Part shown: positions 1 to 21,732 of the stretch, piece after piece
How positions within the stretch are numbered: the stretch's first letter is position 1
How the letters are laid out: each line of letters starts with the position of its first letter
Source: a virus
Taxonomy: Duplodnaviria; Heunggongvirae; Uroviricota; Caudoviricetes
Reading direction: 5' to 3' (one strand)
IMG/VR virus record: IMGVR_UViG_2663763286_000005
Location: 1-21,732 of that record
Length of the DNA: 21,732 nt
Program-made: the position numbers and the translations under genes
The notes under the pieces: generated by a model
What the model was told of the DNA's origin: nothing
Seen by the model: the letters and a program-made list of their open reading frames with translations, nothing else
The model's database searches: none

Positions 1-270
1 GGACATTACCGGACAACTGCTGCGGCACCTCAACTCCGATTTGATGAACGCAATATTCACAAGCAATGCGTGGTGTGCAACCAGCACAAAAGCGGAAATC
101 TCGTTCCGTATCGCGTCGAACTGATTAGCCGCATCGGGCAGGAAGCAGTAGAGGAAATCGAATCAAACCATAACCGCTATCGCTGGACTGTCGAAGAGTG
201 CAGGGCCATCAAGGCGGAGTATCAACAGAAACTTAAAAAACTGCGAAACAGCAGAAGTGAGGTTGCATGA
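1..270 (+). CDS. ninG: NinG/Rap-like protein, C-terminal fragment (5' end outside window)
   Basis: Reading frame is open from position 1 to the stop at 268-270. Cys-rich C-terminus (CVVCNQHK) recalled as resembling lambda NinG. Sits directly upstream of the lambda-type phosphatase as in the nin region. Confidence 0.55.
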
Positions 271-938
271 ATATCTACGAAAGAATTGATGGCAGCAAAT
301 ACCGAAATATTTGGGTAGTTGGCGATCTGCACGGATGCTACACGAACCTGATGAACAAACTGGATACGATTGGATTCGACACCAAAAAAGACCTGCTTAT
401 CTCGGTGGGCGATTTGGTTGATCGTGGTGCAGAGAACGTTGAATGCCTGGAATTAATCACATTCCCCTGGTTCAGAGCTGTACGTGGAAACCATGAGCAA
501 ATGATGATTGATGGCTTATCAGAGCGTGGAAACGTTAATCACTGGCTGCTTAATGGCGGTGGCTGGTTCTTTAATCTCGATTACGACAAAGAAATTCTGG
601 CTAAAGCTCTTGCCCATAAAGCAGAAGAACTTCCGTTAATCATCGAACTGGTGAGCAAAGGTAAAAAATATGTCATCTGCCACGCCGATTATCCTTGTGA
701 CGAATACGAATTTGGAAAGCCAGTTGATCATCAGCAGGTAATCTGGAACCGCGAACGAATCAGCAACTCACAAGACGGGATCGTTAAAGAAATTAAAGGT
801 GCGGACACGTTTATCTTTGGTCATACGCCAGCAGTGAAACCACTCAAATTTGCCAACCAGATGTATATCGATACTGGGGCAGTATTCTGCGGAAATCTCA
901 CATTGATTCAGGTACAGGGAGAAGGCGCGTGGGCATAA
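267..938 (+). CDS. Ser/Thr protein phosphatase, lambda PPase-like metallophosphoesterase
   Basis: 223 aa with the calcineurin-like motifs GDLHG, GDLVDRG and GNHE. Near-identical from memory to lambda ORF221 phosphatase. Start overlaps the upstream stop (ATGA). Confidence 0.9.
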
Positions 939-1447
939 GAGAACTAAACCTCACCAAAGAACAGCATGAGTGGCTGAATGGCTGGCTTGAACTGTGGGGC
1001 GCATGGGTTTATTCAGGTCGTCTGGAAAAGCGCATGAGCAGCGTAATAGCTAAGTTCATGGAGAGCGTAGAGCCGGGAAGAGTTATGACAAGGCCAATGT
1101 GTAATGATGATGATGGAATGTTGATTTCTCAGGTCGTCGATTCCGTCATGTACATTGACAAGAAAGCCTTTGGAATCCTCCTCAGCTACTACGCTCATGG
1201 TTCATCTAAGCGAGCAATTGCATCCTACTATCACGCGACTGCAAAGCCACGCAAGATGTGTGGACGTGGTGGCGAGGGATGGAGAAAACCTTCACTGGCA
1301 ACCTGTAGAAACGAAATTGACGACATCCTGAAAGCGTCGTTATTTGTTTTGTACCAACCAATGCAAAATGCTTTCAAAATGCGTAAACGTGTTGAGAAAG
1401 TTAAGCATGTTGCTGTTAAAAGCCTTGACATGCAATTAGCCATTTAG
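929..1447 (+). CDS. Q: late-gene antiterminator Q, phage 21/82-type
   Basis: 172 aa between the nin region and the lysis cassette. Motifs [14 protein letters not shown] and LLSYY recalled from phage-21-type Q proteins. Overlaps the phosphatase gene end by 10 nt. Confidence 0.75.
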
Positions 1448-1454
1448 CCATAAT
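1425..1454 (+). promoter_or_regulatory. candidate late promoter (pR'-like)
   Basis: TTGACA at 1425-1430 and CATAAT at 1449-1454 with an 18-nt spacer, just upstream of the tR'-like hairpin. Sequence-only prediction. Confidence 0.3.
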
Positions 1455-1465
1455 TAGCAGGTAAG

Positions 1466-1509
1466 CTGCCGTTAGTGACTCTTAAGTTGCAACGGTGGCT
1501 TTTTTATTT
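1466..1509 (+). terminator. tR'-like intrinsic terminator
   Basis: Stem ctgccgtt/aacggtgg (8 bp, 2 G-U) with a large loop, followed by cttttttattt. The flanking gcacaacaggtaagagcattga is recalled from lambda tR'. Confidence 0.5.
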
Positions 1510-1935
1510 GCACAACAGGTAAGAGCATTGAACCCGCAGACCTCGCGGAATTGGTGAAAGGTGCCGCGCAGTGCTCTTATCGTTGTGGTGAAGCTCAATG
1601 GCGAGCTAGCAGATAGGCGATAGTGAAAATACTAGTCATGTAGCTGACCGCCGCGCGTACTGCAATCGGCAGCGCACCGATGGAAGCCGGTTCGATTCCG
1701 GCCGCCACAACCCAAACTGAGCCGTAGCCACTGGCTGTCCTGAATTCATCAGTGATGGTTATGCTGCGGCCTTCTACACATGACCTTCGTGAAAGCGGGT
1801 GGCATGAGGTTGCGCTAACAACCTCCTGCCGTTTTGCCCGTGCATATCGGTCACGAACAAATCTGATTACTAAACACAGTAGCCTGGATTTGTTCTATCA
1901 GTAATCGACCTTATTCCTAATTAAATAGAGCAAAT

Positions 1936-1964
1936 CCCCTTATTGGGGGTAAGACATGAAGATG
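1936..1964 (+). promoter_or_regulatory. holin translation-initiation region: sdi-type hairpin plus dual start (Met1-Lys2-Met3)
   Basis: Hairpin cccct-tatt-ggggg at 1936-1949 immediately 5' of atgaagatg. Matches the lambda S107/S105 dual-start arrangement. Confidence 0.6.
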
Positions 1965-2279
1965 CCAGAAAAACATGACCTGTTAGCCGCCATTCTCGCG
2001 GCAAAGGAACAAGGTATCGGGGCAATCCTTGCGTTTGCAATGGCGTACCTTCGCGGCAGATATAATGGCGGTGCGTTTACAAAAACAGTAATCGACGCAA
2101 CGATGTGCGCCATTATCGCCTGGTTCATTCGTGACCTTCTCGACTTCGCCGGACTAAGTAGCAATCTCGCTTATATAACGAGCGTGTTCATCGGCTACAT
2201 CGGTACTGACTCGATTGGTTCGCTTATCAAACGCTTCGCTGCTAAAAAAGCCGGAGTAGAAGATGGTGGAAATCAATAA
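1956..2279 (+). CDS. S: class I holin S (S107 antiholin and S105 holin from dual starts)
   Basis: 107 aa, essentially identical from memory to lambda S ([20 protein letters not shown]...). Three hydrophobic segments. Confidence 0.95.
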
Positions 2280-2739
2280 TCAACGTAAGGCGTTCCTCGA
2301 TATGCTGGCGTGGTCAGAGGGAACTGATAATGGACGTCAGAAAACCAGAAATCATGGTTATGACGTCATTGTAGGCGGAGAGCTATTCAATGATTACTCC
2401 GATCACCCTCGCAAACTTGTCACGCTAAACCCAAAACTCAAATCAACAGCAGCCGGACGTTACCAGCTTCTTTCCCGTTGGTGGGATGCCTATCGTAAGC
2501 AGCTTGGCCTGAAAGACTTCTCTCCGAAAAGCCAGGACGCTGTGGCATTGCAACAGATTAAAGAGCGTGGCGCTTTACCGATGATTGACCGCGGTGATAT
2601 TCGTCAGGCAATCGACCGTTGCAGCAATATCTGGGCTTCACTGCCGGGGGCTGGTTATGGTCAGTTCGAGCATAAGGCTGACAACCTGATTGCAAAATTC
2701 AAAGAAGCAGGCGGAACGGTCAGAGAGATTGAGGTATGA
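2263..2739 (+). CDS. R: endolysin R (lytic transglycosylase)
   Basis: 158 aa, near-identical from memory to lambda R ([26 protein letters not shown]...). Start lies inside the 3' end of S as in lambda. Confidence 0.95.
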
Positions 2740-3173
2740 GCAGAGTAACCGCGATTATCTCCGCTCTGGTTATCTGCATCATCGTCTGCCTGTCGTGGAC
2801 GGTCAATCATTACCGTGATAACGCCATCGCCTATAAAGAGCAGCGCGATAAGGCCACATCCACAATCGCTGACATGCAGAAGCGTCAACGTGATGTAGCT
2901 GAACTCGATGCCAGATATACAAAGGAGCTTGCTGATGCTAACGCGACTATCGAAAGTCTCCGTGGTGATGTTTCTGCTGGTCGTAAGCGCCTGCAAGTCG
3001 CCGCCACCTGTGCAAAGTCAACGCCCGGAGCCAGCGGCATGGGCGATGGAGAAAGCCCAGGACTTACAGCAGATGCTGAACTCAATTATTACCGTCTCCG
3101 AAGTGGAATCGGCAAGATAACCGCGCAGGTTAACTACCTGCAGGAGTACATCAGGACGCAATGCCTTCGATGA
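2736..3173 (+). CDS. Rz: i-spanin Rz
   Basis: 145 aa with an N-terminal transmembrane segment and coiled-coil region, similar to lambda Rz. ATGA overlap with R. Confidence 0.9.
2935..3120 (+). CDS. Rz1: o-spanin Rz1 lipoprotein, embedded in Rz in the +1 frame
   Basis: AAGGAG at 2922-2927 sits 7 nt before ATG 2935. Signal peptide with lipobox VVSAC, then a Pro-rich mature part ([13 protein letters not shown]). The ORF opens at 2908 but 2935 has the proper ribosome-binding site. Confidence 0.8.
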
Positions 3174-3347
3174 TAGCGATAATTTTACTCATCATCCTTC
3201 ACATCTGGCTCTGTAGACAGGGTGGTGATCACTTCTGGAGTAAATCCAGATTAAACATCTCATTGCTGATGCTTGATATTGAGCATCTTGCGCGCGGTAA
3301 GGGGCTGCGTTGAGATAAGAGCCAGTCATTACAAATACCAGGATTTA

Positions 3348-3679: not shown

Positions 3680-3965
3680 CCATTACAAAGCCTATCTACG
3701 GGTGGGCTTGATAATGAAACCAGAGTTTATTCTTGGCAACCAGTTACGGCAGTACAGCGAAACAACCCAAGCCAGTAAGTGGGGAAATAACACTGGCAGC
3801 CACTGAAAGATGAACCCCCTGCCTTATGGCAAAAAAGATTCTTTGTGGTGGCGGACTGATGGAAAGACATCGGATAGAATAAAACAGTGGCTAGGGTAGC
3901 TCCCGAAAAGCGGAATCGTCACCGCCAGCCACTGAATCTATGACGAACAACTAGACGAGGTTGAT

Positions 3966-9717: not shown

Positions 9718-10971
9718 ATGGCTAACCAATTAGCAAAAGACCTTGAAATCATGTTCGAAAACTACGTTGAGGGCTTTGAGGCCGCCTGCGTAGTTTCCCG
9801 TAACGCTAAAAAATTCCGTCCCGGTGATACAGCAATGCAGCGAGCAGGTGATGTTCTGTATCGTCCGCAGCATTACCACATGAACATTGAGGAAGGCCTA
9901 GATCTCAGCGGCAAAACGCCAACAGCACTGGTTCAGCGCCTTGTTCCTTCTGTGTTCAAGGAGCCGAAAAACATTCTGTACACTCTGGATGCGCGTGAAA
10001 TGCGTGACCCGGAACATAAAACTGAAGCTGGTCGCGCCGCAGGTATGCGCCTTGCTGCACAGATTGACTCTGACCTGATTTCCATGGTCACGCAGCGTGC
10101 TACTAACGTGGTCGCAATTCCTGCCTCAGAAAATGGCTCACAGGGCCTTGCCTTGTGGAATGGTGCGGCAGATATTGATGCCACCATGACGGCGATTGGT
10201 GTACCGCAGGGTATCAACCGTCGCTCTTTCTGGAACCCCTTCAACTACAAAGACCTTGCTGGCGAGCTTGGTCACCGTGCCTACGCTCAGGGCGCAACCC
10301 TGACAGCATACGAAAAAGCGCAGATCCCTCCGGTTGCTTCCTTTGATAGCTACAAGACCGATATTTCTGGTCGATTACCGAAAGGAAGCGCTGAATCCTT
10401 GACAGTATCAGGCCAACCTGAACACAAGGTTGAAGCGAAAGATTCAAATGGTATGCCAGTTGATAACCGACAGGGGACTATTACGGTATCTGCATCTGGC
10501 TTGCAGGTTGGTGATGCGTTCACCATTGCCGGTGTGAATTCCGTACACCAGAACACAAAAGATACCACCGGGCAACCGCAGGTATTCCGTGTTCTGGCTG
10601 TTAGCGGAACTACCGTAACAATCTCTCCAAAGATTCTCCCTGTTGAAAATGCCGATGTTGCGAGTCGCCCATATGCAAACGTCGATGCCAAACCGGCAGC
10701 ATCAGCAGCAATCACCATTCTCAACAAGAACGCAGCTCCTGCTAACCTGTTCTGGGCTGATGGTTCTGTTGAGCTGATGTACGGCAAACTGGCGTTCCCG
10801 ACTGGTCAGGGTCCACAGGTAATGACAGCAACCACCGAGCAGGGCGCTACGCTGATCATGTCTTACGCCTTCGACCACATCAAAGGTGTAACCACTGCGC
10901 GTTTCACCACCCTGTACGGTTGCTCTGTACTTGTTCCTGAATATACGGGCATCGTTATTGCCGGGCAGTAA
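9718..10971 (+). CDS. major capsid (coat) protein, P22-like
   Basis: 417 aa. Motifs recalled from P22 gp5 (YANV, NLFWADG..). Followed by a strong terminator. Confidence 0.85.
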   Translation: MANQLAKDLEIMFENYVEGFEAACVVSRNAKKFRPGDTAMQRAGDVLYRPQHYHMNIEEGLDLSGKTPTALVQRLVPSVFKEPKNILYTLDAREMRDPEHKTEAGRAAGMRLAAQIDSDLISMVTQRATNVVAIPASENGSQGLALWNGAADIDATMTAIGVPQGINRRSFWNPFNYKDLAGELGHRAYAQGATLTAYEKAQIPPVASFDSYKTDISGRLPKGSAESLTVSGQPEHKVEAKDSNGMPVDNRQGTITVSASGLQVGDAFTIAGVNSVHQNTKDTTGQPQVFRVLAVSGTTVTISPKILPVENADVASRPYANVDAKPAASAAITILNKNAAPANLFWADGSVELMYGKLAFPTGQGPQVMTATTEQGATLIMSYAFDHIKGVTTARFTTLYGCSVLVPEYTGIVIAGQ

Positions 10972-10976
10972 TTTTG

Positions 10977-11001
10977 GTGGGGCTTCGGCCCCATTTTTAT
11001 T
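10977..11001 (+). terminator. intrinsic terminator after coat gene
   Basis: Stem ggggc-ttcg-gcccc followed by atttttatt. Confidence 0.6.
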
Positions 11002-11012
11002 GGGAGAAGACA

Positions 11013-11201
11013 ATGGCACGAACAATGCTCTATAAGCCTGGCAACATGATCACCTGTGGTCAGTTTGCTGTCGATTACATCATTGTTGATGACGAAGAAG
11101 TTAAATCTCACCTGAAAAAAGGCTGGGTAAAAACTCCTGAAGAAACCGCAACGAAGCAAAAAGTGGCTAAGGCGGAAGAAGATGGCGAAAACGAAGGGTG
11201 A
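11013..11201 (+). CDS. hypothetical small protein (62 aa)
   Basis: ATG at 11013 with gggagaag upstream. The ORF-track start at 10974 lies inside the terminator hairpin, so the internal Met is preferred. Overlaps the gp4 start. Confidence 0.45.
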   Translation: MARTMLYKPGNMITCGQFAVDYIIVDDEEVKSHLKKGWVKTPEETATKQKVAKAEEDGENEG

Positions 11202-11643
11202 TCTCGTTCTTAAGGCTTTGCGAAAAGCCGGGCTGTATTCCAATGCCACGTTGACAGATGCCGACCCTCAGGAAATTGAAGATGCCATTAATGACCTCGA
11301 AGACATGATGGCAGCATGGCAGGCTAAAGGTATCGAGCTTGGGTATCAGTTTGCTGATACAGAAAACGGCATGATGCCGTTACCGGACGATGATTCAGGT
11401 ATCCCTGCATGGGCAAATGATGGCGTCGCTTTGAAACTCGCTGTGCAAGTGTGCATGGATAACGTCATTCAGCCGTCAGACGCTCTCCTTACCGCTGCTG
11501 ACAGTGCATATCAGACAATCTGTATCGCTTTAACCAAAATACCACCACTTGAGCGGCGAAATGACATGCCTCGCGGTAGTGGTAACAAAAGCGCGTTTAC
11601 GTGGAATCGGTTTTACATCGAGAAAGATGATCCGAGTACGTGA
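11182..11643 (+). CDS. tail accessory factor (P22 gp4-like)
   Basis: 153 aa. N-terminus KTKGDLV..ALRK..ATLTD and C-terminal MPRGSGN recalled from P22 gp4. Correct position. Confidence 0.75.
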   Translation: MAKTKGDLVLKALRKAGLYSNATLTDADPQEIEDAINDLEDMMAAWQAKGIELGYQFADTENGMMPLPDDDSGIPAWANDGVALKLAVQVCMDNVIQPSDALLTAADSAYQTICIALTKIPPLERRNDMPRGSGNKSAFTWNRFYIEKDDPST

Positions 11644-11652
11644 GGTGAATAA

Positions 11653-13071
11653 ATGACGATTCAGCAACTTCCGCTTATGAAAGGTGTCGGCAAAGACTTC
11701 CGAAACGCCGACTATATCGACTATCTGCCAGTGAATATGTTGGCTACACCCAAAGAAATCCTGAACAGCAGCGGATATCTTCGCTCATTCCCGGGCATTG
11801 CCAAACGTTCTGACGTGAACGGTGTATCTCGCGGCGTCGAGTACAACATGGCGCAGAATGCTGTTTATCGCGTGTGTGGTGGGAAGCTTTACAAAGGCGA
11901 AAGTGAAGTCGGTGATGTTGCCGGAAGTGGTCGCGTATCAATGGCGCATGGTCGGACATCACAGGCGGTAGGCGTTAATGGTCAACTGGTCGAGTATCGC
12001 TATGATGGCACGCTTAAAACAGTATCAAACTGGCCTACAGACAGCGGATTCACGCAGTATGAGTTAGGTTCGGTTCGTGACATTACGCGTTTACGTGGGC
12101 GTTATGCGTGGTCAAAAGACGGCACTGATTCATGGTTTATCACTGACCTTGAAGACGAATCGCATCCTGACCGTTACAGCGCACAATATCGTGCCGAGTC
12201 TCAGCCGGACGGCATCATCGGTATCGGAACATGGCGAGACTTCATCGTCTGCTTTGGTTCATCGACGATTGAATATTTCTCCCTGACTGGTGCAACCACC
12301 GTTGGTGCCGCTTTGTATGTCGCACAGCCATCACTGATGGTGCAGAAAGGGATTGCCGGAACCTACTGCAAAACGCCGTTTGCTGATTCGTATGCGTTCA
12401 TCAGCAATCCGGCAACAGGTGCGCCGTCTGTATACATCATTGGCTCCGGTCAGGTGTCACCAATCGCCAGCGCGAGCATTGAGAAAATCCTCCGCTCCTA
12501 CACTGCTGATGAACTGGCTGATGGCGTGATGGAGTCTCTGCGATTTGATGCTCATGAGTTGCTGATTATCCACCTTCCGCGCCACGTCCTCGTGTACGAC
12601 GCATCTTCAAGCGACAATGGTCCGCAATGGTGTGTGCTGAAAACAGGCCTGTATGACGATGTGTACCGCGCTATAGACTTCATTTACGAAGGCAATCAGA
12701 TAACGTGCGGCGATAAGCTGGAATCTGTTACCGGGAAATTGCAATTCGACATCAGCAGTCAGTACGACAAGCAGCAGGAACATATTTTATATTCTCCTTT
12801 AATAAAGGCAGATAACGCTTTAATAAATGACCTTGAATTAGAAACATCGGGCGGCGTGTGTGATAGAATAGATAAAATATTTATATCAGCCACTACAGAT
12901 GGAATTAGTTACGGTCGTGAGCAAATGGTCGTATTACAAAAACCATTTGTATATGACAATCGCGTTTTATGGCGAAAAGTTGGTCGAGTTAGACGCCTCA
13001 TTGGATTTAAATTCAGAGTTATTGCAAAAGGTCCTGTTACATTATCAGGCCTTTCTATTCGTGTAACATAA
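11653..13071 (+). CDS. tail accessory factor (P22 gp10-like)
   Basis: 472 aa, the same length as P22 gp10, in the right position. The last ~290 nt are markedly AT-rich. Confidence 0.8.
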   Translation: MTIQQLPLMKGVGKDFRNADYIDYLPVNMLATPKEILNSSGYLRSFPGIAKRSDVNGVSRGVEYNMAQNAVYRVCGGKLYKGESEVGDVAGSGRVSMAHGRTSQAVGVNGQLVEYRYDGTLKTVSNWPTDSGFTQYELGSVRDITRLRGRYAWSKDGTDSWFITDLEDESHPDRYSAQYRAESQPDGIIGIGTWRDFIVCFGSSTIEYFSLTGATTVGAALYVAQPSLMVQKGIAGTYCKTPFADSYAFISNPATGAPSVYIIGSGQVSPIASASIEKILRSYTADELADGVMESLRFDAHELLIIHLPRHVLVYDASSSDNGPQWCVLKTGLYDDVYRAIDFIYEGNQITCGDKLESVTGKLQFDISSQYDKQQEHILYSPLIKADNALINDLELETSGGVCDRIDKIFISATTDGISYGREQMVVLQKPFVYDNRVLWRKVGRVRRLIGFKFRVIAKGPVTLSGLSIRVT

Positions 13072-13092
13072 ATCGAAACTAAAGGAGTAGAT

Positions 13093-13638
13093 ATGTTGAG
13101 TGAAAACGCAAAAGATATTCCTGGGTATGAAGGTTTATATGCCGTAACAGAGGATGGGCGAGTATATTCTCACTCACGTGTTGTTAAAGCTGCGCATGGC
13201 AGCACGCAACTCAGAAAGGGGCGGTGGCTAAAACAACACGAGAATAATAAAGGTTATCTATATTTGCCACTTAGTGTTGATGGAGTTAAAGTAAAATGGC
13301 TTGTGCATAGGCTTGTCGCTCTTGCTTTCGTCCCCAATCCAGAAGGCAAGCCGTTCATAAATCACATAGATAACAACCGAAAAAATAATAATGCTTCTAA
13401 TTTAGAGTGGTGTACTCAAAAGGAGAATATGAAGCATTGCTCATCTCAAGGTAGGGTGAAGTTTCCGGCTTTAAAAGGAGAAAATAATCCAATTTCAAAG
13501 CTATCATATGAGCAAGTAATAGAAATAAAGAAATCAAAGGGAGTTAATCAAAGAGAGCTTGCTAAAAAATACTGTGTCAGTCAGACGGTGATTCACAATA
13601 TCCAGTCTGGTAAATCGTGGAGGCATGTTAATGGCTGA
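13093..13638 (+). CDS. HNH homing endonuclease (NUMOD4-like N-terminus, HNH core, C-terminal helix-turn-helix)
   Basis: 181 aa. [16 protein letters not shown] motif, then HRLVALAF...[29 protein letters not shown] 6 nt before the ATG. AT-rich relative to flanks. Confidence 0.85.
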
Positions 13639-14332
13639 TTCGAATCTCAATGTGCCGGTAATCATCCAGGCTACGCGGCTCGATACATCAATCCTTCCAC
13701 GCAATATATTCAGTCAGTCTTACCTGCTGTATGTCATTAATCAGGGGGCTGATGTCGGCGCAATTGCCGGGAAGGCAAATCAGGCTGGTCAGGGCGCTTA
13801 CGATGCTCAGGTGAAAAACGATGAGCAGGATGTCGAACTGGCTGATCACGACGCAAGAATCACCGCAAACACAAAAGCGATAAATCTACTTGAGGTCAGG
13901 TTAACAACTGCCGAAGGGAAGATAGTCGTACTGCGTAGCGATGTTGATTACTTGCTGGATGAGGTTATCGATATTCAGGCGCATCTGGTCACTGTTGACC
14001 AAAGACTGGATGACGTAGAAAACAATGTCTCTGGCATTAAGAGTGATTACGTATCGAAAACCGTAACCGAATTGCAGTCTCTTGAATCACCGCTGGATGT
14101 AAAAACATCATATTCAGTTGATGGAATTCAGGTTGTTGGAGCAAGAAATACCGGATGGACTGCAGCCACAGGTACGCCACTTCTTGGCTCATTCAACGCA
14201 AACCAGTCATACACTGTCGGCACTACGTACACGCAATCCGAAGTCGCAGCTCTCGCTACAGGTTTGCAGCAGGCGCGGCAGCGTATTCTGGCGCTTGAAA
14301 CGGCACTTAGATTACATGGGCTGATTGACTGA
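13631..14332 (+). CDS. tail needle (P22 gp26-like)
   Basis: Recalled match to P22 gp26 at both ends ([18 protein letters not shown]...YLLYVI...RLHGLID). Start chosen at ATG 13631 (ggagg 8 nt upstream) rather than 13625. Confidence 0.9.
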
Positions 14333-14787
14333 TGATTACATTCAAACCAACGCGAAACATCGACCTGATCGAAGCAGTCGGAAATCACCCTGACATTATT
14401 GCCGGGAGCAACAACGGTGATGGATACGATTACAAGCCTGAATGCCGTTACTTTGAGGTGAACGTGCACGGTCAGTTCGGCGGCATTGTTTACTATCAGG
14501 AGATTCAGCCGCTGACATTCGATTGCCACGCCATGTACCTGCCAGAGATTCGCGGCTTCAGCAAGGAAATTGGGCTGGCGTTCTGGCGATACATTCTGAC
14601 TAACACCACCGTTCAGTGCGTCACATCGTTCGCTGCGCGCAAATTCCGCCACGGGCAGATGTACTGCGCAATGATTGGCCTTAAGCGTGTCGGAACCATC
14701 AAGAAATACTTCAAAGGCGTGGATGACGTGACATTTTACAGTGCTACACGCGAAGAACTAATCGACTTCCTGAATCACGGGAGATAG
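14332..14787 (+). CDS. P22 gp14-like virion protein
   Basis: 151 aa, assigned by synteny (after needle, before ejection proteins). TGATG coupling with the needle gene. Confidence 0.55.
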   Translation: MITFKPTRNIDLIEAVGNHPDIIAGSNNGDGYDYKPECRYFEVNVHGQFGGIVYYQEIQPLTFDCHAMYLPEIRGFSKEIGLAFWRYILTNTTVQCVTSFAARKFRHGQMYCAMIGLKRVGTIKKYFKGVDDVTFYSATREELIDFLNHGR

Positions 14788-14789
14788 CC

Positions 14790-15479
14790 ATGTTATATGC
14801 ATTTAAGCTGGGCAGAAAACTGCGCGGCGAGGAACCTTATTGCCCTGAAAAAGGCGGGAAAGGTGGGTCCGATAAAAGCGCAAAGTATGCAGCAGAAGCT
14901 CAGAAGTATGCCGCAGACCTGCAAAATCAGCAGTGGCAGACGATCATGAAAAACCTTGCTCCGTTCACGCCGCTTGCGGAGCAGTATGTTAACCAGCTTC
15001 AGAATCTTTCCAGTTTAGAAGGACAGGGGCAGGCACTTAATCAGTATTACAACTCTCAGCAGTATAAAGACCTTGCAGGTCAGGCGCGTTACCAGAGTCT
15101 TGCTGCTGCGGAGGCAACGGGTGGACTTGGTTCGACAGCCACAAGCAATCAACTGGCTACGATCGCGCCGACTCTCGGTCAGTCTTGGTTATCAAACCAG
15201 ATGAGCAATTACAACAATCTGGCAAACGTTGGGCTTGGTGCGCTGCAAGGTCAGGCAAACGCCGGGCAGACGTACGCCAACAACATGAGCAGCATTGCAC
15301 AGCAAAGCGCAGCTCTTGCCGCTGCTAATGCCAATAAACCATCAAGTCTTCAGACTGCAATTAGTAACGGAACGTCTGGTGCGATTGCCGGTGCAGGTCT
15401 TGCCAGCCTTTTGGGAACATCAACACCTTGGGGCGCTGGCATTGGTGCTGGTATCGGATTGCTTGGCTCGTTGTTTTAA
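14790..15479 (+). CDS. ejection protein (P22 gp7-like)
   Basis: 229 aa, the same length as P22 gp7. Gln/Asn/Ala-rich with a Gly-rich hydrophobic C-terminus. Confidence 0.75.
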   Translation: MLYAFKLGRKLRGEEPYCPEKGGKGGSDKSAKYAAEAQKYAADLQNQQWQTIMKNLAPFTPLAEQYVNQLQNLSSLEGQGQALNQYYNSQQYKDLAGQARYQSLAAAEATGGLGSTATSNQLATIAPTLGQSWLSNQMSNYNNLANVGLGALQGQANAGQTYANNMSSIAQQSAALAAANANKPSSLQTAISNGTSGAIAGAGLASLLGTSTPWGAGIGAGIGLLGSLF

Positions 15480-15488
15480 GGGGTAATC

Positions 15489-16865
15489 ATGGCTACTTGG
15501 CAAGGAACAAACGGCGGATTGTTGGCTGGTATCGGTGGTGTCAACTCAAACGCTCCGAGCGTAAATGACATCGGCAATACGCTTCAGCTTATCAGGCAGA
15601 ACAATGATATTGAGCGTTCAGGCGCTAACAATGTTGGGCTGACTGCTTTGCAAGGCCTTTCAGGTATTGCAGGGGTGTTTCAGCAGGAAAAGCAGGCTCA
15701 GCGGCAGAAAGAATTTCAGCAGGCGTATGCTAATGCTTATGCGTCTGGTGATCGCGGTGCTTTGCGTCAGTTGGCTACTCAATATCCAGACCAGATTGAA
15801 TCCGTTCGTAAAGGCATGGGATTCATTGATGAAGACCAGCGCAATTCTATCGGCATCTTAGCGGCTGGCGCACGCCTTGCGGCCTCGTCTCCAGAAGCAA
15901 TGCAATCATGGCTGCAAAACAACGCCAAGGAACTGACTCGCGTCGGTGTTGACCCTAATAACGTTGCTCAGATGTATCAGCAGAATCCTTCAGGATTTGG
16001 TGAGTTTGTTGATCACCTTGGGATGGCTGCACTTGGTCCGATTGACTACTTCAATGTTCAGGACAAGATGGCTGGTCGTGAGATTGACCGAGGTAGGCTG
16101 GCAGAGACAATCCGCAGCAATCAGGCCAGCGAAGCACTTCAGGCGAGAGGGCAAAACCTTTCCTATCAGTCAGCAATGACTGGACACGGACTTGCAGCAG
16201 AAAGACTGGCACTTGATAAGCAGAAATTCGGTTTTGAAGTACAACAGGCACAAAAGAAGGCCGAGGAACTTATTAATGCTGCGCCAAAATTATCAGTGAA
16301 CATGGAAAAGGCTATAGAAAAATCAGCAGGTGATGCGGCAGCTAGTCGTAATGCTGCCGATTCAATGACAACGCTCGCTGACACGCTGGAGAAGGAGAAG
16401 CCAACTCCTGGTTTGTTCGGTAACGCTGAAAATATGTTCTCTAAGCTTACGGGGCAAGATAACTACCTCCGAGATATGCGGATTAGATTCAACCAACTAG
16501 CCAATGCGCAGGCAACCAAGCTTCTCCCTCCCGGCCCTGCATCAGATAAGGATATTGAGTTTGCAAGGAAAGGCATTCCAAGCGAAACGGATAATCCAAT
16601 GGTCATGGCTCGATGGTTAAGGGGTATGGCAAAAATGGAAAGTAATAACGCGAAGTTCAACGAGTTTAGGTCAGAGTGGATGAGTGCAAACGGCAGCCCA
16701 GGACAATCTGATCGCAACCGAAACATCATGGGGATGGATGTTAAGAAGGGTGAATCATTGAACTCTGCGGCAAAACGTTTTCTTTCCTCAAGTTATGGCG
16801 ATAGCCAACCTCAACAGCAATTGTCCGATGACGAATTAATTAGCAAATATCTCGGAGGGCAGTAA
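15489..16865 (+). CDS. ejection protein (P22 gp20-like)
   Basis: 458 aa, by synteny and size. Confidence 0.7.
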
Positions 16866-18787
16866 TGGCTTATAGTCGTGAACAATTGATGACGGCGTTA
16901 AGGAATGCGGATGCTGCTGGTGATACTGAGGGAGCACGTCGCATCGCTCAGATTCTGTCCTCCAGTAATCAACCAACTCAAAACCAAAAGCAGCCTGTAG
17001 AACAGCAAGATGGATTTATGTCTGACCTCGGCGAAGCAGTAAAAGAAACTGGTCGCGGACTGGTGCAGGCTGGTGTAAATGTGGCAAATATACCAGCATC
17101 AGTTGCCGATGCTGTAACAAGCGCGGCGGCATGGGCTGGCGGTAAACTCGGTATTGGCGATGGAACATATCAACCAGCGCCACGAGTAACAACTCAGGGA
17201 TTAGAGCAGGCGTTTGGACTTCAGCAAGGTGCTCTGACTCCACAAACGACAGAAGGTAGGGTGTTTGCGGAGGCATTGCCTTACCTGGCTACTGTTGGCG
17301 TTGGCGGCGCTTCAACTCAGGCGCCAACACTTGCTGGTCGAATTACTCAAGGTGCAGCCCGTCTTCTGGCAGAAAACGCAGTCGGATCGCTCGCCGCAAA
17401 CAGTGAGAAAAATGATGCGGGAAAACTGGCAACAGATATAGGTGTTGGCATGCTAACAGGTGGTGCTGTTAATACTGTTGCAAAAGGGCTTGAGCGTGGA
17501 ATAACTGCCTTTAAAGGTGATATTGCGCCAGAAGTGGCGAAGAAAATTGCCACATCAGAATCGATGGGCGTGACACCAATGACATCTGATGTTATCCCGC
17601 CGAAAAATGCTTTCACTCGCGGCCTTACTCAGGATGCCGAGGGGGCTTTGCTCGGGACAGGCTCAAAGCGAGCGGAGCAATATGCAACGCGTAGTAAGCT
17701 GGTAAGTAATTATTTTGACCGTTTTGGTGAGTACAACCCTGATGATGTTGTGAAATCTCTGACCACCACGTTAAGGGGACGGAAGGATGACGCTGGCGCT
17801 GTTATCAATGACGTCACCAATAAAATGGGTAATGCCGCAGTTGATACCACAAACACTATGAATGCTCTGAATACAGCGATCGCAAGACAGGAACGGCTTG
17901 GGACGTCTGCCAATCAAAGCCTGCTTACATCCTTGCGTAACCTACGTGAAGAATTAGCAAACCCTGCAACTGATTTGGATGTTACGTTTGATCTATTGCG
18001 TCAGCACAGAACAGCATTTAGATCTAATGTTCAGGGAGATGCTATGGTCTTCCCCAACCAGGCAAAAGCAGAAACCAATATGGTAGAGAATGCAATGTCA
18101 AAAGACCTTCGTAACGCAGTTGCAAAAAAACTCGGTGCATCAGACGCAGCAAAATACCTTAAAGCAAATTCCGATTATGCAAACGTTTATAATAAGGTGC
18201 TTAATAAAAACATTGCTAACAAGCTCAACAAGGCAAGCAGTGAAGCCAGTCCTGAGCTTATAAATACCGTTGTATTAAGCAGAAAACCATCTGACGTGAA
18301 ACGAATCTGGAGCGCATTGGATGATAAAGGGAAAGATGCTATGCGCGCAGCTTACGTCAGCAAAATAGCGGAAAAGGCCGGTGACTCTCCAGCCAAGTTC
18401 ATCACTGAAGTTAATAAGCTTAAATCTCAGTCAGGCGGTGAAATTTACAACACTATTTTTTCTGGAAAGCACATGAAAGAGCTTGATGCTCTTCATGAAG
18501 TTCTACAGCAAACAGCAAGGTCAGACACCGCAAATGTAGTAACTCAGACGGGGCAATCGCAAGCCAACAGGATAAGGACGATTGGCGCAACTGCAACCCT
18601 TGGTGTATCACTGGGACTTGAAGCAGGTTTCGGTGCAATCATGCGCTTGTACGAGTCCAAAGCAGCAAGGAATGCCCTCTTACGTCTGGCAAACACTAAA
18701 TCTGGAACACCAGCCTATGAAAGAGCGTTAAGTAACGCTGCAAATGCCGTCAGGCCGCTGTTTGCTACTGAGGCAACACAGCAGTAA
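16865..18787 (+). CDS. ejection protein (P22 gp16-like)
   Basis: 640 aa, by synteny and size. ATG overlaps the gp20 stop. Confidence 0.7.
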
Positions 18788-18811
18788 CGTATGGGAAATT
18801 GGATTCAATCT

Positions 18812-19201
18812 CTAACATTTTCTTTTTACTTTTCCAACAAAAGCTTTGGTTGAATCCATATTTCCATAACCGGAAATGGTTTTTGACATTAAAACTGTTC
18901 CAGTAGGATGTATTACCCATGAGTCGATAACGCGTTGAGTTTCGCCATTCGCGCCGATTCCTATGATGGAGTTTTTAGACAATGCTTTGTAAGCCATGCC
19001 GCCCGCATCTGTCCCAGAATATGTGATGCTGGCATCTTCACCGCTTGTCTTAATGATGAATGTTCCACTAAAACCATCTTCTTCCGGATGGAAATTATTT
19101 CGTTCTGAATAGCTTATTCCGCGCATATCTCCAACGACCCAGCACTCTGCTGTAGCCCCAAAAGATATGAATAAGAACATAGCAGCAAGAAATTGCTTCA
19201 C
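18812..19201 (-). CDS. hypothetical secreted protein (accessory)
   Basis: GTG start at 19199-19201 with AAGGAGG 5 nt upstream on the minus strand. Signal peptide MKQFLAAMFLFISFGATA. Cys near both ends of the mature part. Opposite strand to the virion genes. Confidence 0.6.
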   Translation of the reverse strand: MKQFLAAMFLFISFGATAECWVVGDMRGISYSERNNFHPEEDGFSGTFIIKTSGEDASITYSGTDAGGMAYKALSKNSIIGIGANGETQRVIDSWVIHPTGTVLMSKTISGYGNMDSTKAFVGKVKRKC

Positions 19202-19318
19202 ACCAACCTCCTTAGTTTTGAGCAGGATACCATGAAAAAAGTAAACATCTTTTGCCTACTTCACATTTGAATGGTTTGTCATTAGGATGTTTCCGGTTTT
19301 TTAAATATGGAAATTGAT

Positions 19319-19738
19319 ATGAAGAGGATTATTGGCGTCGTTGCTGGCGCTATGATGTTATCTGGGTGCGCAACTATTGTTGGTGATGAAACGCAACTTG
19401 TGCAAGTGAACAGCAACCCTTCCGGTGCGAGCTTTAAGGTAAAAGATGAATCAGGCGTGATTGTTGCGCAAGGCAAGACTCCACAAGGAGTAACTCTTGC
19501 CAAGTCAGATGGTAGTTATTTTGGCAAAAAGAGCTACCAGATCACTATGGAAAAGGATGGGTACGAACCAGTTACCCTGCCAATCAAAGCCAATGCCAAT
19601 GGTTGGTATATTGGTGGAAACCTTGTGTTTGGTGGGTTAATTGGTTGGCTTGCTGTTGATCCATTTAATGGTGGGATGTATACACTGAAGCCAAAAGAGG
19701 CAAATGCATCTCTTATACCTTCCACGAAGCAAGATTAA
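19319..19738 (+). CDS. hypothetical lipoprotein (accessory)
   Basis: Signal peptide with lipobox LSGC (MKRIIGVVAGAMMLSGC). Gly/Trp-rich hydrophobic C-terminal segment. An alternative start at 19307 exists. Followed by a strong terminator. Confidence 0.7.
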   Translation: MKRIIGVVAGAMMLSGCATIVGDETQLVQVNSNPSGASFKVKDESGVIVAQGKTPQGVTLAKSDGSYFGKKSYQITMEKDGYEPVTLPIKANANGWYIGGNLVFGGLIGWLAVDPFNGGMYTLKPKEANASLIPSTKQD

Positions 19739-19744
19739 GAAATG

Positions 19745-19769
19745 AAACCCACCGTCAGGTGGGTTTTTT
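19745..19769 (+). terminator. intrinsic terminator
   Basis: aaacccacc-gtca-ggtgggttt followed by a T-run. Confidence 0.7.
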
Positions 19770-19782
19770 ATAAGGAGTAATC

Positions 19783-20040
19783 ATGATTTACCCATCAAAC
19801 AACCCACCAGTTTGCCTGATTGGATACCAGCCTTGCAGTTTTTATGGAATTAATTATGCCATGCTCAAGAGCCTTGTTAGCATCCAAAATGGTCGAGTCT
19901 GCTATCAGGGATGCCCACCTAATATGGGTTCCGATGTCGATATTGAACGTCTCAACGAAGCGATCAAGATCGTTATCGAGGCATTTCCCGTACTCTCTCA
20001 ATCTGGCATGGTCGGCGGCTGGGGTGGCAAAGCCCCATAA
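19783..20040 (+). CDS. hypothetical small Cys-rich protein
   Basis: 85-aa ORF with AAGGAG 6 nt upstream. Four Cys. No family recognised. Confidence 0.5.
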   Translation: MIYPSNNPPVCLIGYQPCSFYGINYAMLKSLVSIQNGRVCYQGCPPNMGSDVDIERLNEAIKIVIEAFPVLSQSGMVGGWGGKAP

Positions 20041-20329
20041 TAGAGGATGTAACAGGAATCTTGATAATGGGTTTGCGAAACGTTCTGAGCCAGCCAGGAA
20101 AACGATATTAGCTATGGATTCAACATTGCTTATGTTGTGAGTTCTAACGGTAACAGGGAGTGACTTAAGAAAGTTATACGCAGTAAAACCAGCGGAGTTT
20201 CCCCTCCCTGACTTGATATATGGATATTTAATTCAGTTGCGCCTTGAGATAATGCGGTGAGACAGTGGTTCTGAAGTTGCCCAACAGTGGCGGTGTTAAC
20301 GGGGCATAAGAAATGAATTGTGTGCAGCA

Positions 20330-20584
20330 TTATTTATCATCCTTGCCATAAATCTTTTTAAGTGTCTCAAACACAACAGTCTTGAACTGCTCTGCCTGCT
20401 GATCAGCCAAGCGTTCAGCTTCGTCGCGATAGCCAGTCACAGGCGATGGTTTTGATAGAGCATCTTGGACGATTTGTAACAACTCGGAGTTCATTGATCT
20501 CCCATTCGCCTCCGCCCTGAATTTTAATTTCTCCCTTACTTCCATAGGCATACGGAAGTTAAAGTGCGGATCATCTCTAGCCAT
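20330..20584 (-). CDS. mnt: Mnt repressor (P22 immI)
   Basis: 84 aa, N-terminal ~55 residues recalled as near-identical to P22 Mnt (ARDDPHFNFRMPMEVREKLKFRAEANGRSMNSELLQIVQDAL...). Divergent from arc. Confidence 0.95.
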   Translation of the reverse strand: MARDDPHFNFRMPMEVREKLKFRAEANGRSMNSELLQIVQDALSKPSPVTGYRDEAERLADQQAEQFKTVVFETLKKIYGKDDK

Positions 20585-20606
20585 GCCATCACTCCAAGTT
20601 AGTGTA

Positions 20607-20635
20607 TTGACATGATAGAAGCACCCTACTATATT
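20607..20635 (+). promoter_or_regulatory. Pant promoter
   Basis: TTGACA at 20607-20612, 17-nt spacer, TATATT at 20630-20635. Matches the P22 Pant layout. Confidence 0.75.
20612..20632 (+). promoter_or_regulatory. Arc operator
   Basis: 21-mer atgatagaagcaccctactat between the -35 and -10 of Pant. One difference from the P22 operator as recalled. Confidence 0.7.
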
Positions 20636-20641
20636 CTCAAT

Positions 20642-20658
20642 AGGTCCACGGTGGACCT
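20642..20658 (+). promoter_or_regulatory. Mnt operator
   Basis: 17-bp palindrome aggtccacggtggacct, matching the P22 Mnt operator. Confidence 0.85.
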
Positions 20659-20674
20659 ATGCTGTGAGGTGAAT

Positions 20675-20836
20675 ATGAAAGGAATGAGCAAAATGCCGCA
20701 GTTCAATTTGCGGTGGCCTAAAGAAGTATTGGATTTGGTCCGCAAGGTGGCGGAAGAGAATGGTCGGTCTGTTAACTCTGAGATTTATCAGAGAGTAATG
20801 GAAAGCTTTAAGAAGGAAGGGCGCATTGGCGCGTAA
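20675..20836 (+). CDS. arc: Arc repressor (P22 immI)
   Basis: 53 aa, matches P22 Arc as recalled ([52 protein letters not shown]). ORF-track start 20612 is upstream of the real start. Confidence 0.95.
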
Positions 20837-20904
20837 AGTTGAAGCCCCAACTGCGGGAACAGTCAGGGCTTCGGTATCAACAAATCGGATTAGGAAATAT
20901 TGAC

Positions 20905-21571
20905 ATGAAAAGTATAGCAAAGGCACAAAACGATTTCACCATCTTCAAATTTGGCGACAGTGAAATTCGCGTCATTAACAAGTGCGGCGAGCCGTGGTTT
21001 GTAGCTAAAGATGTTTGTGATGCTTTAGCTTTGACTAACTCACGCAAGGCGCTTACTGCACTTGATGACGATGAAAAGGGAGTAACTTTAAGTTACACCC
21101 TTGGTGGTGAGCAGAATCTAAGCATTGTGAGCGAATCAGGTATGTATACATTGGTTCTGCGCTGCCGCGATGCAGTCAATAAAGGTTCAGTCCCGCACAA
21201 ATTCCGCAAGTGGGTAACAGCAGAAGTTCTGCCTTCAATTCGCAAACATGGCGAGTATGTAAAAGGAAAGAAAACCACTGTGGAGGAAAGAACACCGCTA
21301 CGCGATGCAGTAAACATGCTGGTAGGAAAGAAAGGACTTCGCTATGATGATGGATACAATATGGTTCATCAGCGTTTTGGTATTGACAGCATTGATGAAC
21401 TTTCAATTGAACAAATCCCGCTGGCCGTAGAGTACATCCACAGGGTAGTGCTTGAAGGCGAGTTTATCGGCAAACAAGAGAAGAAAGCAAACGAGCTTTC
21501 TGCAAAAGAAGCAAACAGCCTTGTATGGCTATGGGATTATGCCAATCGCTCACAGGCATTATTCCGCGAAC
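20905..21571 (+). pseudogene. ant: antirepressor Ant, interrupted by IS insertion after about codon 222
   Basis: Hand-translated: [43 protein letters not shown]... (P22 antirepressor N-terminal motifs). The frame runs into the IS-derived sequence at 21572. Missing from the ORF track because no stop occurs before the window end. Confidence 0.8.
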
Positions 21572-21732
21572 TGAACCGCCCCGGGTTTCCTGGAGAGTAT
21601 TTTATCTGTGAACTCAGGCTGCCAGATCATTATTTCCGATGGAAGCATAATAAGCTTTTTCTGCTTCTGCCGGAGGAATATGGCCCAGCCTTTCCAGCAA
21701 TCGTCGATTGTTATACCAGTCCACCCACGTTA
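21572..21732 (-). mobile_element. IS3-family insertion sequence, IS629/IS1203-like, partial (terminal inverted repeat plus transposase 3' end)
   Basis: Terminus TGAACCGCCCCGGG... starts at 21572. The minus strand encodes ...[38 protein letters not shown]-stop. Recalled as near-identical to the IS629 right end. Confidence 0.8.
21614..21732 (-). CDS. IS3-family transposase OrfB (DDE/rve integrase), C-terminal fragment
   Basis: Minus-strand frame ending at stop 21614-21616 (tca on the + strand). Its 5' end lies beyond the window. Confidence 0.8.

Follow-up and report, generated by a model that had tools for sequence, protein, structure and literature searches.

An IS629-like element interrupts the antirepressor gene ant of a P22-like Escherichia coli prophage

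Introduction

Does the open end of the ant frame in this prophage represent a natural variant of the antirepressor gene, or has the gene been cut by an insertion sequence, and what would such a cut mean for the prophage? In phage P22, Ant inactivates repressors non-covalently and is itself held off by Mnt, Arc and the sar RNA (PMC2629481). P22 ant mutants stay SOS-inducible (PMC7380047), and expression of the tailspike gene relies on late transcripts running through the ant moron (PMC2629481). In the window, by which we mean the whole stretch of 21,732 nucleotides that was analysed, the plus-strand frame that starts with the ATG at 20905-20907 runs without a stop to the last base and comprises 276 codons.

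The junction between ant and the IS element

Residues 1-223 of the frame are identical to WP_032204812, the intact 292-aa Ant of a P22-like prophage in E. coli SMN013SH2 (100% in the protein comparison), which is annotated as 'P22AR C-terminal domain-containing protein'. When the whole window was searched by megablast, the DNA match to the ant-bearing prophage was found to break off at 21573. The junction between ant and the IS lies between 21571 and 21572, at the exact terminal nucleotide of the IS and inside the P22_AR_C domain of Ant. The TG at 21572-21573 is common to the IS end and to intact ant, so that codon 223 (CTG, Leu) is kept; the definition of the IS terminus decides where the junction is drawn. 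It is confirmed that the cut of ant by the IS at 21572 is real and not a chance match. An earlier note on this DNA had described an IS3-family terminal inverted repeat at 21572, with Ant truncated after about 222 residues and continued by IS codons; TGAACCGCCCCGGG starts exactly at that position, and the identity to intact Ant, which extends through residue 223, bears out the truncation.

With the plasmid-borne IS copy described below (L002) taken as a proxy for the remaining part of the element, the predicted chimeric protein consists of 223 Ant residues and 77 residues antisense to orfB, followed by a stop. Neither this 300-aa protein nor its 276-aa visible part has an exact match in a collection of 15 billion proteins. 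In the homology search with the chimera, the top hit extends over 74% of the query, all of it within the Ant part; among the hits listed, none covers more than 80% of the query or reaches the IS-derived tail. The features of the region are collected in Table 1.

Table 1. Positions of the features around the interrupted ant gene in the window.
Feature	Position	Strand	Evidence or remark
mnt-like repressor gene, 84 aa, intact	20330..20584	-	Pfam Arc 4.9e-30, Repressor_Mnt 3.5e-12
Pant (+, TTGACA-17-TATATT) and Pmnt (-), divergent promoter-like sites	20607..20640	.	Consensus matches 11/12 and 10/12
arc repressor gene, 53 aa, intact	20675..20836	+	Pfam Arc 9.8e-31
sar antisense RNA gene	20837..20903	-	Rfam RF00262, 71.6 bits vs gathering score 43, model positions 1-68/68
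ant, 5' part	20905..21571	+	Codons 1-222 and first base of codon 223; Bro-N intact, P22_AR_C cut
Chimeric Ant-IS frame	20905..21732	+	Open at window end; predicted 300 aa with L002 as proxy
Psar-like site, just inside ant	20939-20911	-	Promoter consensus scan
Terminal inverted repeat (IRR)	21572..21599	.	TGAACCGCCCCGGG..., also terminal in L002 and in the O111 IS1203 copy
IS629/IS1203-group IS3-family element, first 161 bp	21572..21732	-	Reverse orientation; ends at window edge
Transposase orfB, C-terminal 38 codons and stop (21614-21616)	21614..21732	-	Translation equals the end of the full IS orfB frame

The IS629-like element

The IS begins at 21572 with TGAACCGCCCCGGG, and the part of it within the window is its orfB-proximal end (IRR). 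All of its 161 bases agree with the terminal part of a 1310-bp IS3-family element carried by plasmid pOkiPb01711_1 (L002, 2506-3815), and the same holds for a copy in Stx phage BP-4795 that is annotated as 'OrfB protein of IS629' (161/161, E = 4e-79). The IS1203 copy of an E. coli O111:H8 prophage matches at 156/161 positions, leaving five differences within the visible 161 bp. Among the first 28 bases of the inverted repeat, 24 match the other end of the L002 copy. Inverted repeats of IS3-family elements begin with 5'-TG and end with CA-3'; in keeping with this, TGAACCGCCCCGGG at the one end in the window is the same as at both termini of full copies. On the minus strand, the translation of 21617-21732 is the exact C-terminus of orfB (the last 38 residues), in agreement with the earlier placement of the transposase C-terminus on that strand, and Pfam gave no match for this 38-codon fragment. 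Neither visual inspection nor the consensus scan revealed a convincing outward promoter at the IS end.

The IS tail matches features annotated as 'IS3 family transposase' or 'IS1203 family transposase' in 4090 of the 5426 complete E. coli genomes, and the annotation of the full-length proxy copies includes a programmed frameshift and an AL1L pseudoknot. IS629, a 1310-bp element of the IS3 family, moves by copy-out/paste-in transposition through an OrfAB DDE (rve) transposase; in this family, orfA and orfB are joined by a programmed -1 frameshift. The subtypes of IS629 differ by 4-5%, and IS1203 and IS3411 are isoforms of it (Rump et al. 2011, PMC3271280). The full-length variant represented by L002 is 96.2% identical to the O111:H8 IS1203 copy (50 differences in 1310 positions), and all differences lie within the orfB two-thirds of the element. 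Since this identity falls within the 4-5% spread described for IS629 subtypes (PMC3271280), the label 'IS629-like' is accurate, and the complete identity to the BP-4795 and L002 copies agrees with that assignment. IS629 generates target duplications of 3-4 bp and has no strict target sequence, and 62% of its copies sit in prophages (PMC3271280). Besides sharing the terminus and the orfB C-terminus with IS629, the element in the window therefore also fits this bias by its prophage site.

The immI region

The immediate surroundings of ant follow the immI region ('ant moron') of P22. The promoter-like sites Pant and Pmnt lie between mnt and arc as in the P22 layout (PMC2629481), arc lies upstream of ant, sar, which in the P22 type overlaps the 5' end of ant, is present, and mnt is divergent; in the empty-site relatives, ant is followed by the tailspike gene. 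In the reference prophage of SMN013SH2, the mnt-like gene bears the annotation 'Arc family protein'. The likeness to P22 thus covers the gene order, the divergent Pant/Pmnt pair, sar and the P22_AR_C domain of Ant, and it extends to the location of the ant moron between the ejection-protein genes and the tailspike gene (PMC2629481). A full-length sar separates arc from ant, and this E. coli prophage has conserved the post-transcriptional control of ant known from P22.

However, there are also differences. The N-terminus of the window Ant is a Bro-N domain, whereas other alleles carry a module annotated as 'phage antirepressor N-terminal domain'. The N-terminal module of P22's own Ant is presumably of this latter type (P22_AR_N). 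In addition, ant of the window is broken by the IS, and a clpP-like moron gene adjoins mnt. Degraded ant genes are found in HK620 and Scho1, which resemble the present case in showing decay or interruption in or near a P22-like ant moron (PMC2629481); the window ant differs from them in having received a single, very recent IS hit and no further decay.

Relatives of the prophage and age of the insertion

Positions 1-21573 of the window are 99.9% identical to the SMN013SH2 prophage (megablast); relative to it, the window shows 18 substitutions plus a single 1-bp deletion over 21.5 kb. The late genes in the window are all full-length and colinear with those of this annotated reference, in the order phosphatase, Q, lysis, terminase, portal, scaffold, coat, gp4/gp10/gp26-type and ejection proteins. 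Outside the region corresponding to the window, the reference prophage carries a gene for a LexA-family repressor and, in the nin region, a second antirepressor gene of the KilAC type. The earlier note took the element as a hint at E. coli or Shigella, and E. coli holds as the host, given the 99.9% identity to an E. coli prophage and the 100% identity to a public E. coli-type contig.

Several other features were observed along the window. A 181-aa NUMOD4/HNH_3 (homing-endonuclease-like) gene is present inside the late operon (13093-13638, plus strand), between the genes that the reference annotates as a 472-aa 'packaged DNA stabilization protein' and a 'tail protein', and it also occurs in the reference and O111 prophages. 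Between the lysis and terminase genes, there is an int-alpA RNA match on the plus strand (3884-3946; RF02996, 42 bits, gathering score 35.8). On its left side, the window begins inside ninG, where the match to the reference starts, and NinG-type genes are also found in the O111 prophage; this left edge may be another repeat boundary.

The clpP-like moron gene next to mnt (19794-20330, minus strand), annotated as 'ATP-dependent Clp protease proteolytic subunit', has lost one C between 20194 and 20195 (agcggCagttt in the reference vs agcggagttt in the window), and the frameshift splits it into ORFs of 66 and 68 aa. A look-up of the 66-aa fragment led to Logan contig SRR2103274_179 (L004), which is 100.000% identical to positions 10130-21573 of the window (11.4 kb, 0 mismatches). 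In this contig ant is intact (292 aa), the tailspike gene and dacD come after it, and the contig represents the empty-site allele. Since the clpP-like lesion is also present in L004, it is older than the IS insertion. The zero mismatches to an empty-site relative over 11.4 kb show that the insertion of IS629 in ant is very recent and that the prophage is otherwise unchanged. A transposase fragment near dacD in L004 was considered as a possible IS629 sequence, and was rejected as it gave no BLAST match.

The ant-IS junction was absent from the 5426 complete E. coli genomes, the phage collection, the viral and metagenome contigs and the GTDB species representatives. The predicted second junction (left end of the IS, 0-6 nt, ant 3' part) was likewise absent from the metagenome and GTDB-representative contigs. 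Some hits to O111:H8 seemed to span the whole window; they were rejected, since the IS1203 there is in another gene. In the related P22-like prophage of E. coli O111:H8 02-3334, IS1203 occupies 18846-20155 of L003, within a late gene annotated as 'DNA transfer protein', and is flanked by a clean 3-bp duplication, CTT. The O111:H8 insertion is a separate IS event in a member of the same prophage family, but in the DNA-transfer gene and by the IS1203 subtype, as opposed to ant in the window.

Origin of the junction

We consider it likely, with a probability of roughly 0.8, that IS629 entered ant by simple transposition, leaving what is likely a null allele in a prophage that keeps immI and its morphogenesis genes, is probably SOS-inducible and has lost anti-immunity. 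According to this reading, a 1310-bp IS629 copy would have transposed in reverse orientation into ant of a P22-like E. coli prophage, between 21571 and 21572, and the target duplication would be AAC or GAAC (3-4 bp). Beyond the left end of the IS (...CCAGGATTTCCGGGGCGGTTCA), the sequence would then read (G)AAC-TGTATCCGGCATT, that is, the 3' part of ant; after the 1310-bp IS, (G)AAC-TGTATCCGGCATTAAAACTG... would lead on to the ant terminator and the tailspike gene. Because the second IS end and the target duplication lie beyond the window, which holds 161 bp of the element, we infer that the insertion was a simple one, which duplicated AAC or GAAC and left the ant 3' part on the far side, by analogy with the O111 prophage, where IS1203 is bordered by the CTT duplication.

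A second explanation is that the junction arose by an IS-mediated rearrangement, namely an inversion or deletion involving another IS629 copy, through recombination or intramolecular transposition. In its favour, the window ends within the IS. Moreover, strain SMN013SH2 contains an IS629-type copy (L005, 44286-45595) that lies downstream of the ant break, at a distance of about 8.7 kb, in a gene for a TonB-dependent receptor; this copy points the other way, shares 98.6% identity with L002 and ends in the same 161 nt as the window tail (100% identity), and an inversion between the ant break and a copy of this kind would yield exactly the junction seen here. Deletions associated with IS629 have been reported in O157 (PMC3271280, citing Ooka 2009). 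Against this, the closest relative, L004, is free of IS629-like sequence over its approximately 8.7 kb downstream of the break, and IS3-family elements usually give simple insertions, as in the O111 prophage. We therefore regard a rearrangement as unlikely. If it did take place, the ant 3' part and the tailspike gene would no longer follow the IS, and the prophage could be defective.

A truncated ant was also observed in Salmonella Schwarzengrund, in which the partial Ant EPV6608100.1 ends with its contig at the equivalent of position 21566 of the window (GCA_053439025.1, contig ACBJGB010000046.1, L006 6247-6908). This cut lies 5 nt upstream of the junction in the window, at a place where ant has no mosaic boundary. 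The proximity may be coincidental, or else reflect a hot spot of insertion or the edge of a repeat. It seems improbable to us that nt 662-667 of ant are a recurrent breakpoint, whether as an IS hot spot or as a repeat boundary, or that Bro-N joined to the IS tail has a new regulatory activity. If a recurrent breakpoint were real, ant would be inactivated repeatedly and under selection, as a step by which the anti-immunity of prophages is silenced.

Even less probable is an assembly artefact, in which the ant contig would have been chimerically joined to a collapsed IS repeat. The window does end in a multi-copy repeat, as is typical of short-read contigs, and the junction occurs in no other public sequence among the collections searched. 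However, the break coincides with the very base at which the IS inverted repeat starts, as expected of transposition, and the overlap of ant with the IS at the junction is limited to the dinucleotide TG, which is far too short for a k-mer misjoin. Its position at the exact IS terminus marks the break as a signature of transposition and not of misassembly. The stop of the window 161 bp into the IS is most likely due to the multi-copy IS having ended a short-read contig, and the insertion thus offers an explanation for the contig end at the window edge.

Finally, ant genes have a mosaic structure, in which modules meet at about nt 382, 508-523 and 546-565 among the alleles in complete E. coli genomes, and the frame in the window is open; yet a natural alternative C-terminus after residue 223 is effectively refuted, because the tail is 100% IS DNA antisense to orfB, no collection protein matches past the Ant part, and the same allele comparison shows no mosaic boundary at nt 667. 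Regarding this modularity, the C-terminal part of Ant of about 110 codons (from about nt 546-565) is common to alleles with another N-terminal domain. The protein collection also contains a second class of 292-aa proteins, which share residues 1 to about 190 at 98-99% and lack P22_AR_C.

Consequences for Ant and for the prophage

In intact Ant, Pfam recognizes Bro-N at residues 20-110 and P22_AR_C (PF10548) at residues 192-264 (4e-24). The window Ant retains the whole Bro-N domain, and its P22_AR_C match is reduced to profile positions 1-34 of 73 (3.7e-08). The insertion splits the conserved P22_AR_C module and would exchange the last 69 residues of Ant for about 77 residues from the antisense strand of orfB. 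The AlphaFold model of intact Ant, which is of low confidence (mean pLDDT 56.7), contains two long C-terminal helices (200-229 and 234-259); the cut falls inside the first of them, which would be consistent with a destroyed domain. A sequence search of solved structures with Ant gave no match, and a search for domain-mapping data was likewise without result. As the P22_AR_C domain is cut, we infer a loss of Ant function, and the disrupted allele is, by its sequence, most likely null. Nevertheless, the surviving Bro-N domain may confer some residual or altered activity.

The earlier note had proposed that the loss of the antirepressor changes induction and that the prophage is domesticated. Neither proposal is supported by the present data. 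Because P22 ant mutants are SOS-inducible (PMC7380047) and the near-identical reference prophage has a LexA-family repressor, induction is expected to persist, and virion production with it; the prophage is probably SOS-inducible through a LexA-type repressor. Domestication finds no support in the full-length and colinear late genes, the intact mnt, arc, sar and Pant, and the very recent date of the insertion. In the case of a simple insertion, antiterminated late transcription would cross the IS, and tailspike expression would be kept. What has plausibly been lost is the anti-immunity and trans-induction that Ant exerts by inactivating repressors.

Conclusions

With a known element, a known gene and a known mechanism, the interruption of ant is an ordinary strain-level mutation. 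As a clean and datable marker, the insertion sets this isolate apart from relatives that are identical in other respects; it has little import beyond strain typing. It predicts a prophage that would be unable to antagonise repressors in trans, and it illustrates how IS629 erodes the accessory ('moron') genes of prophages first.
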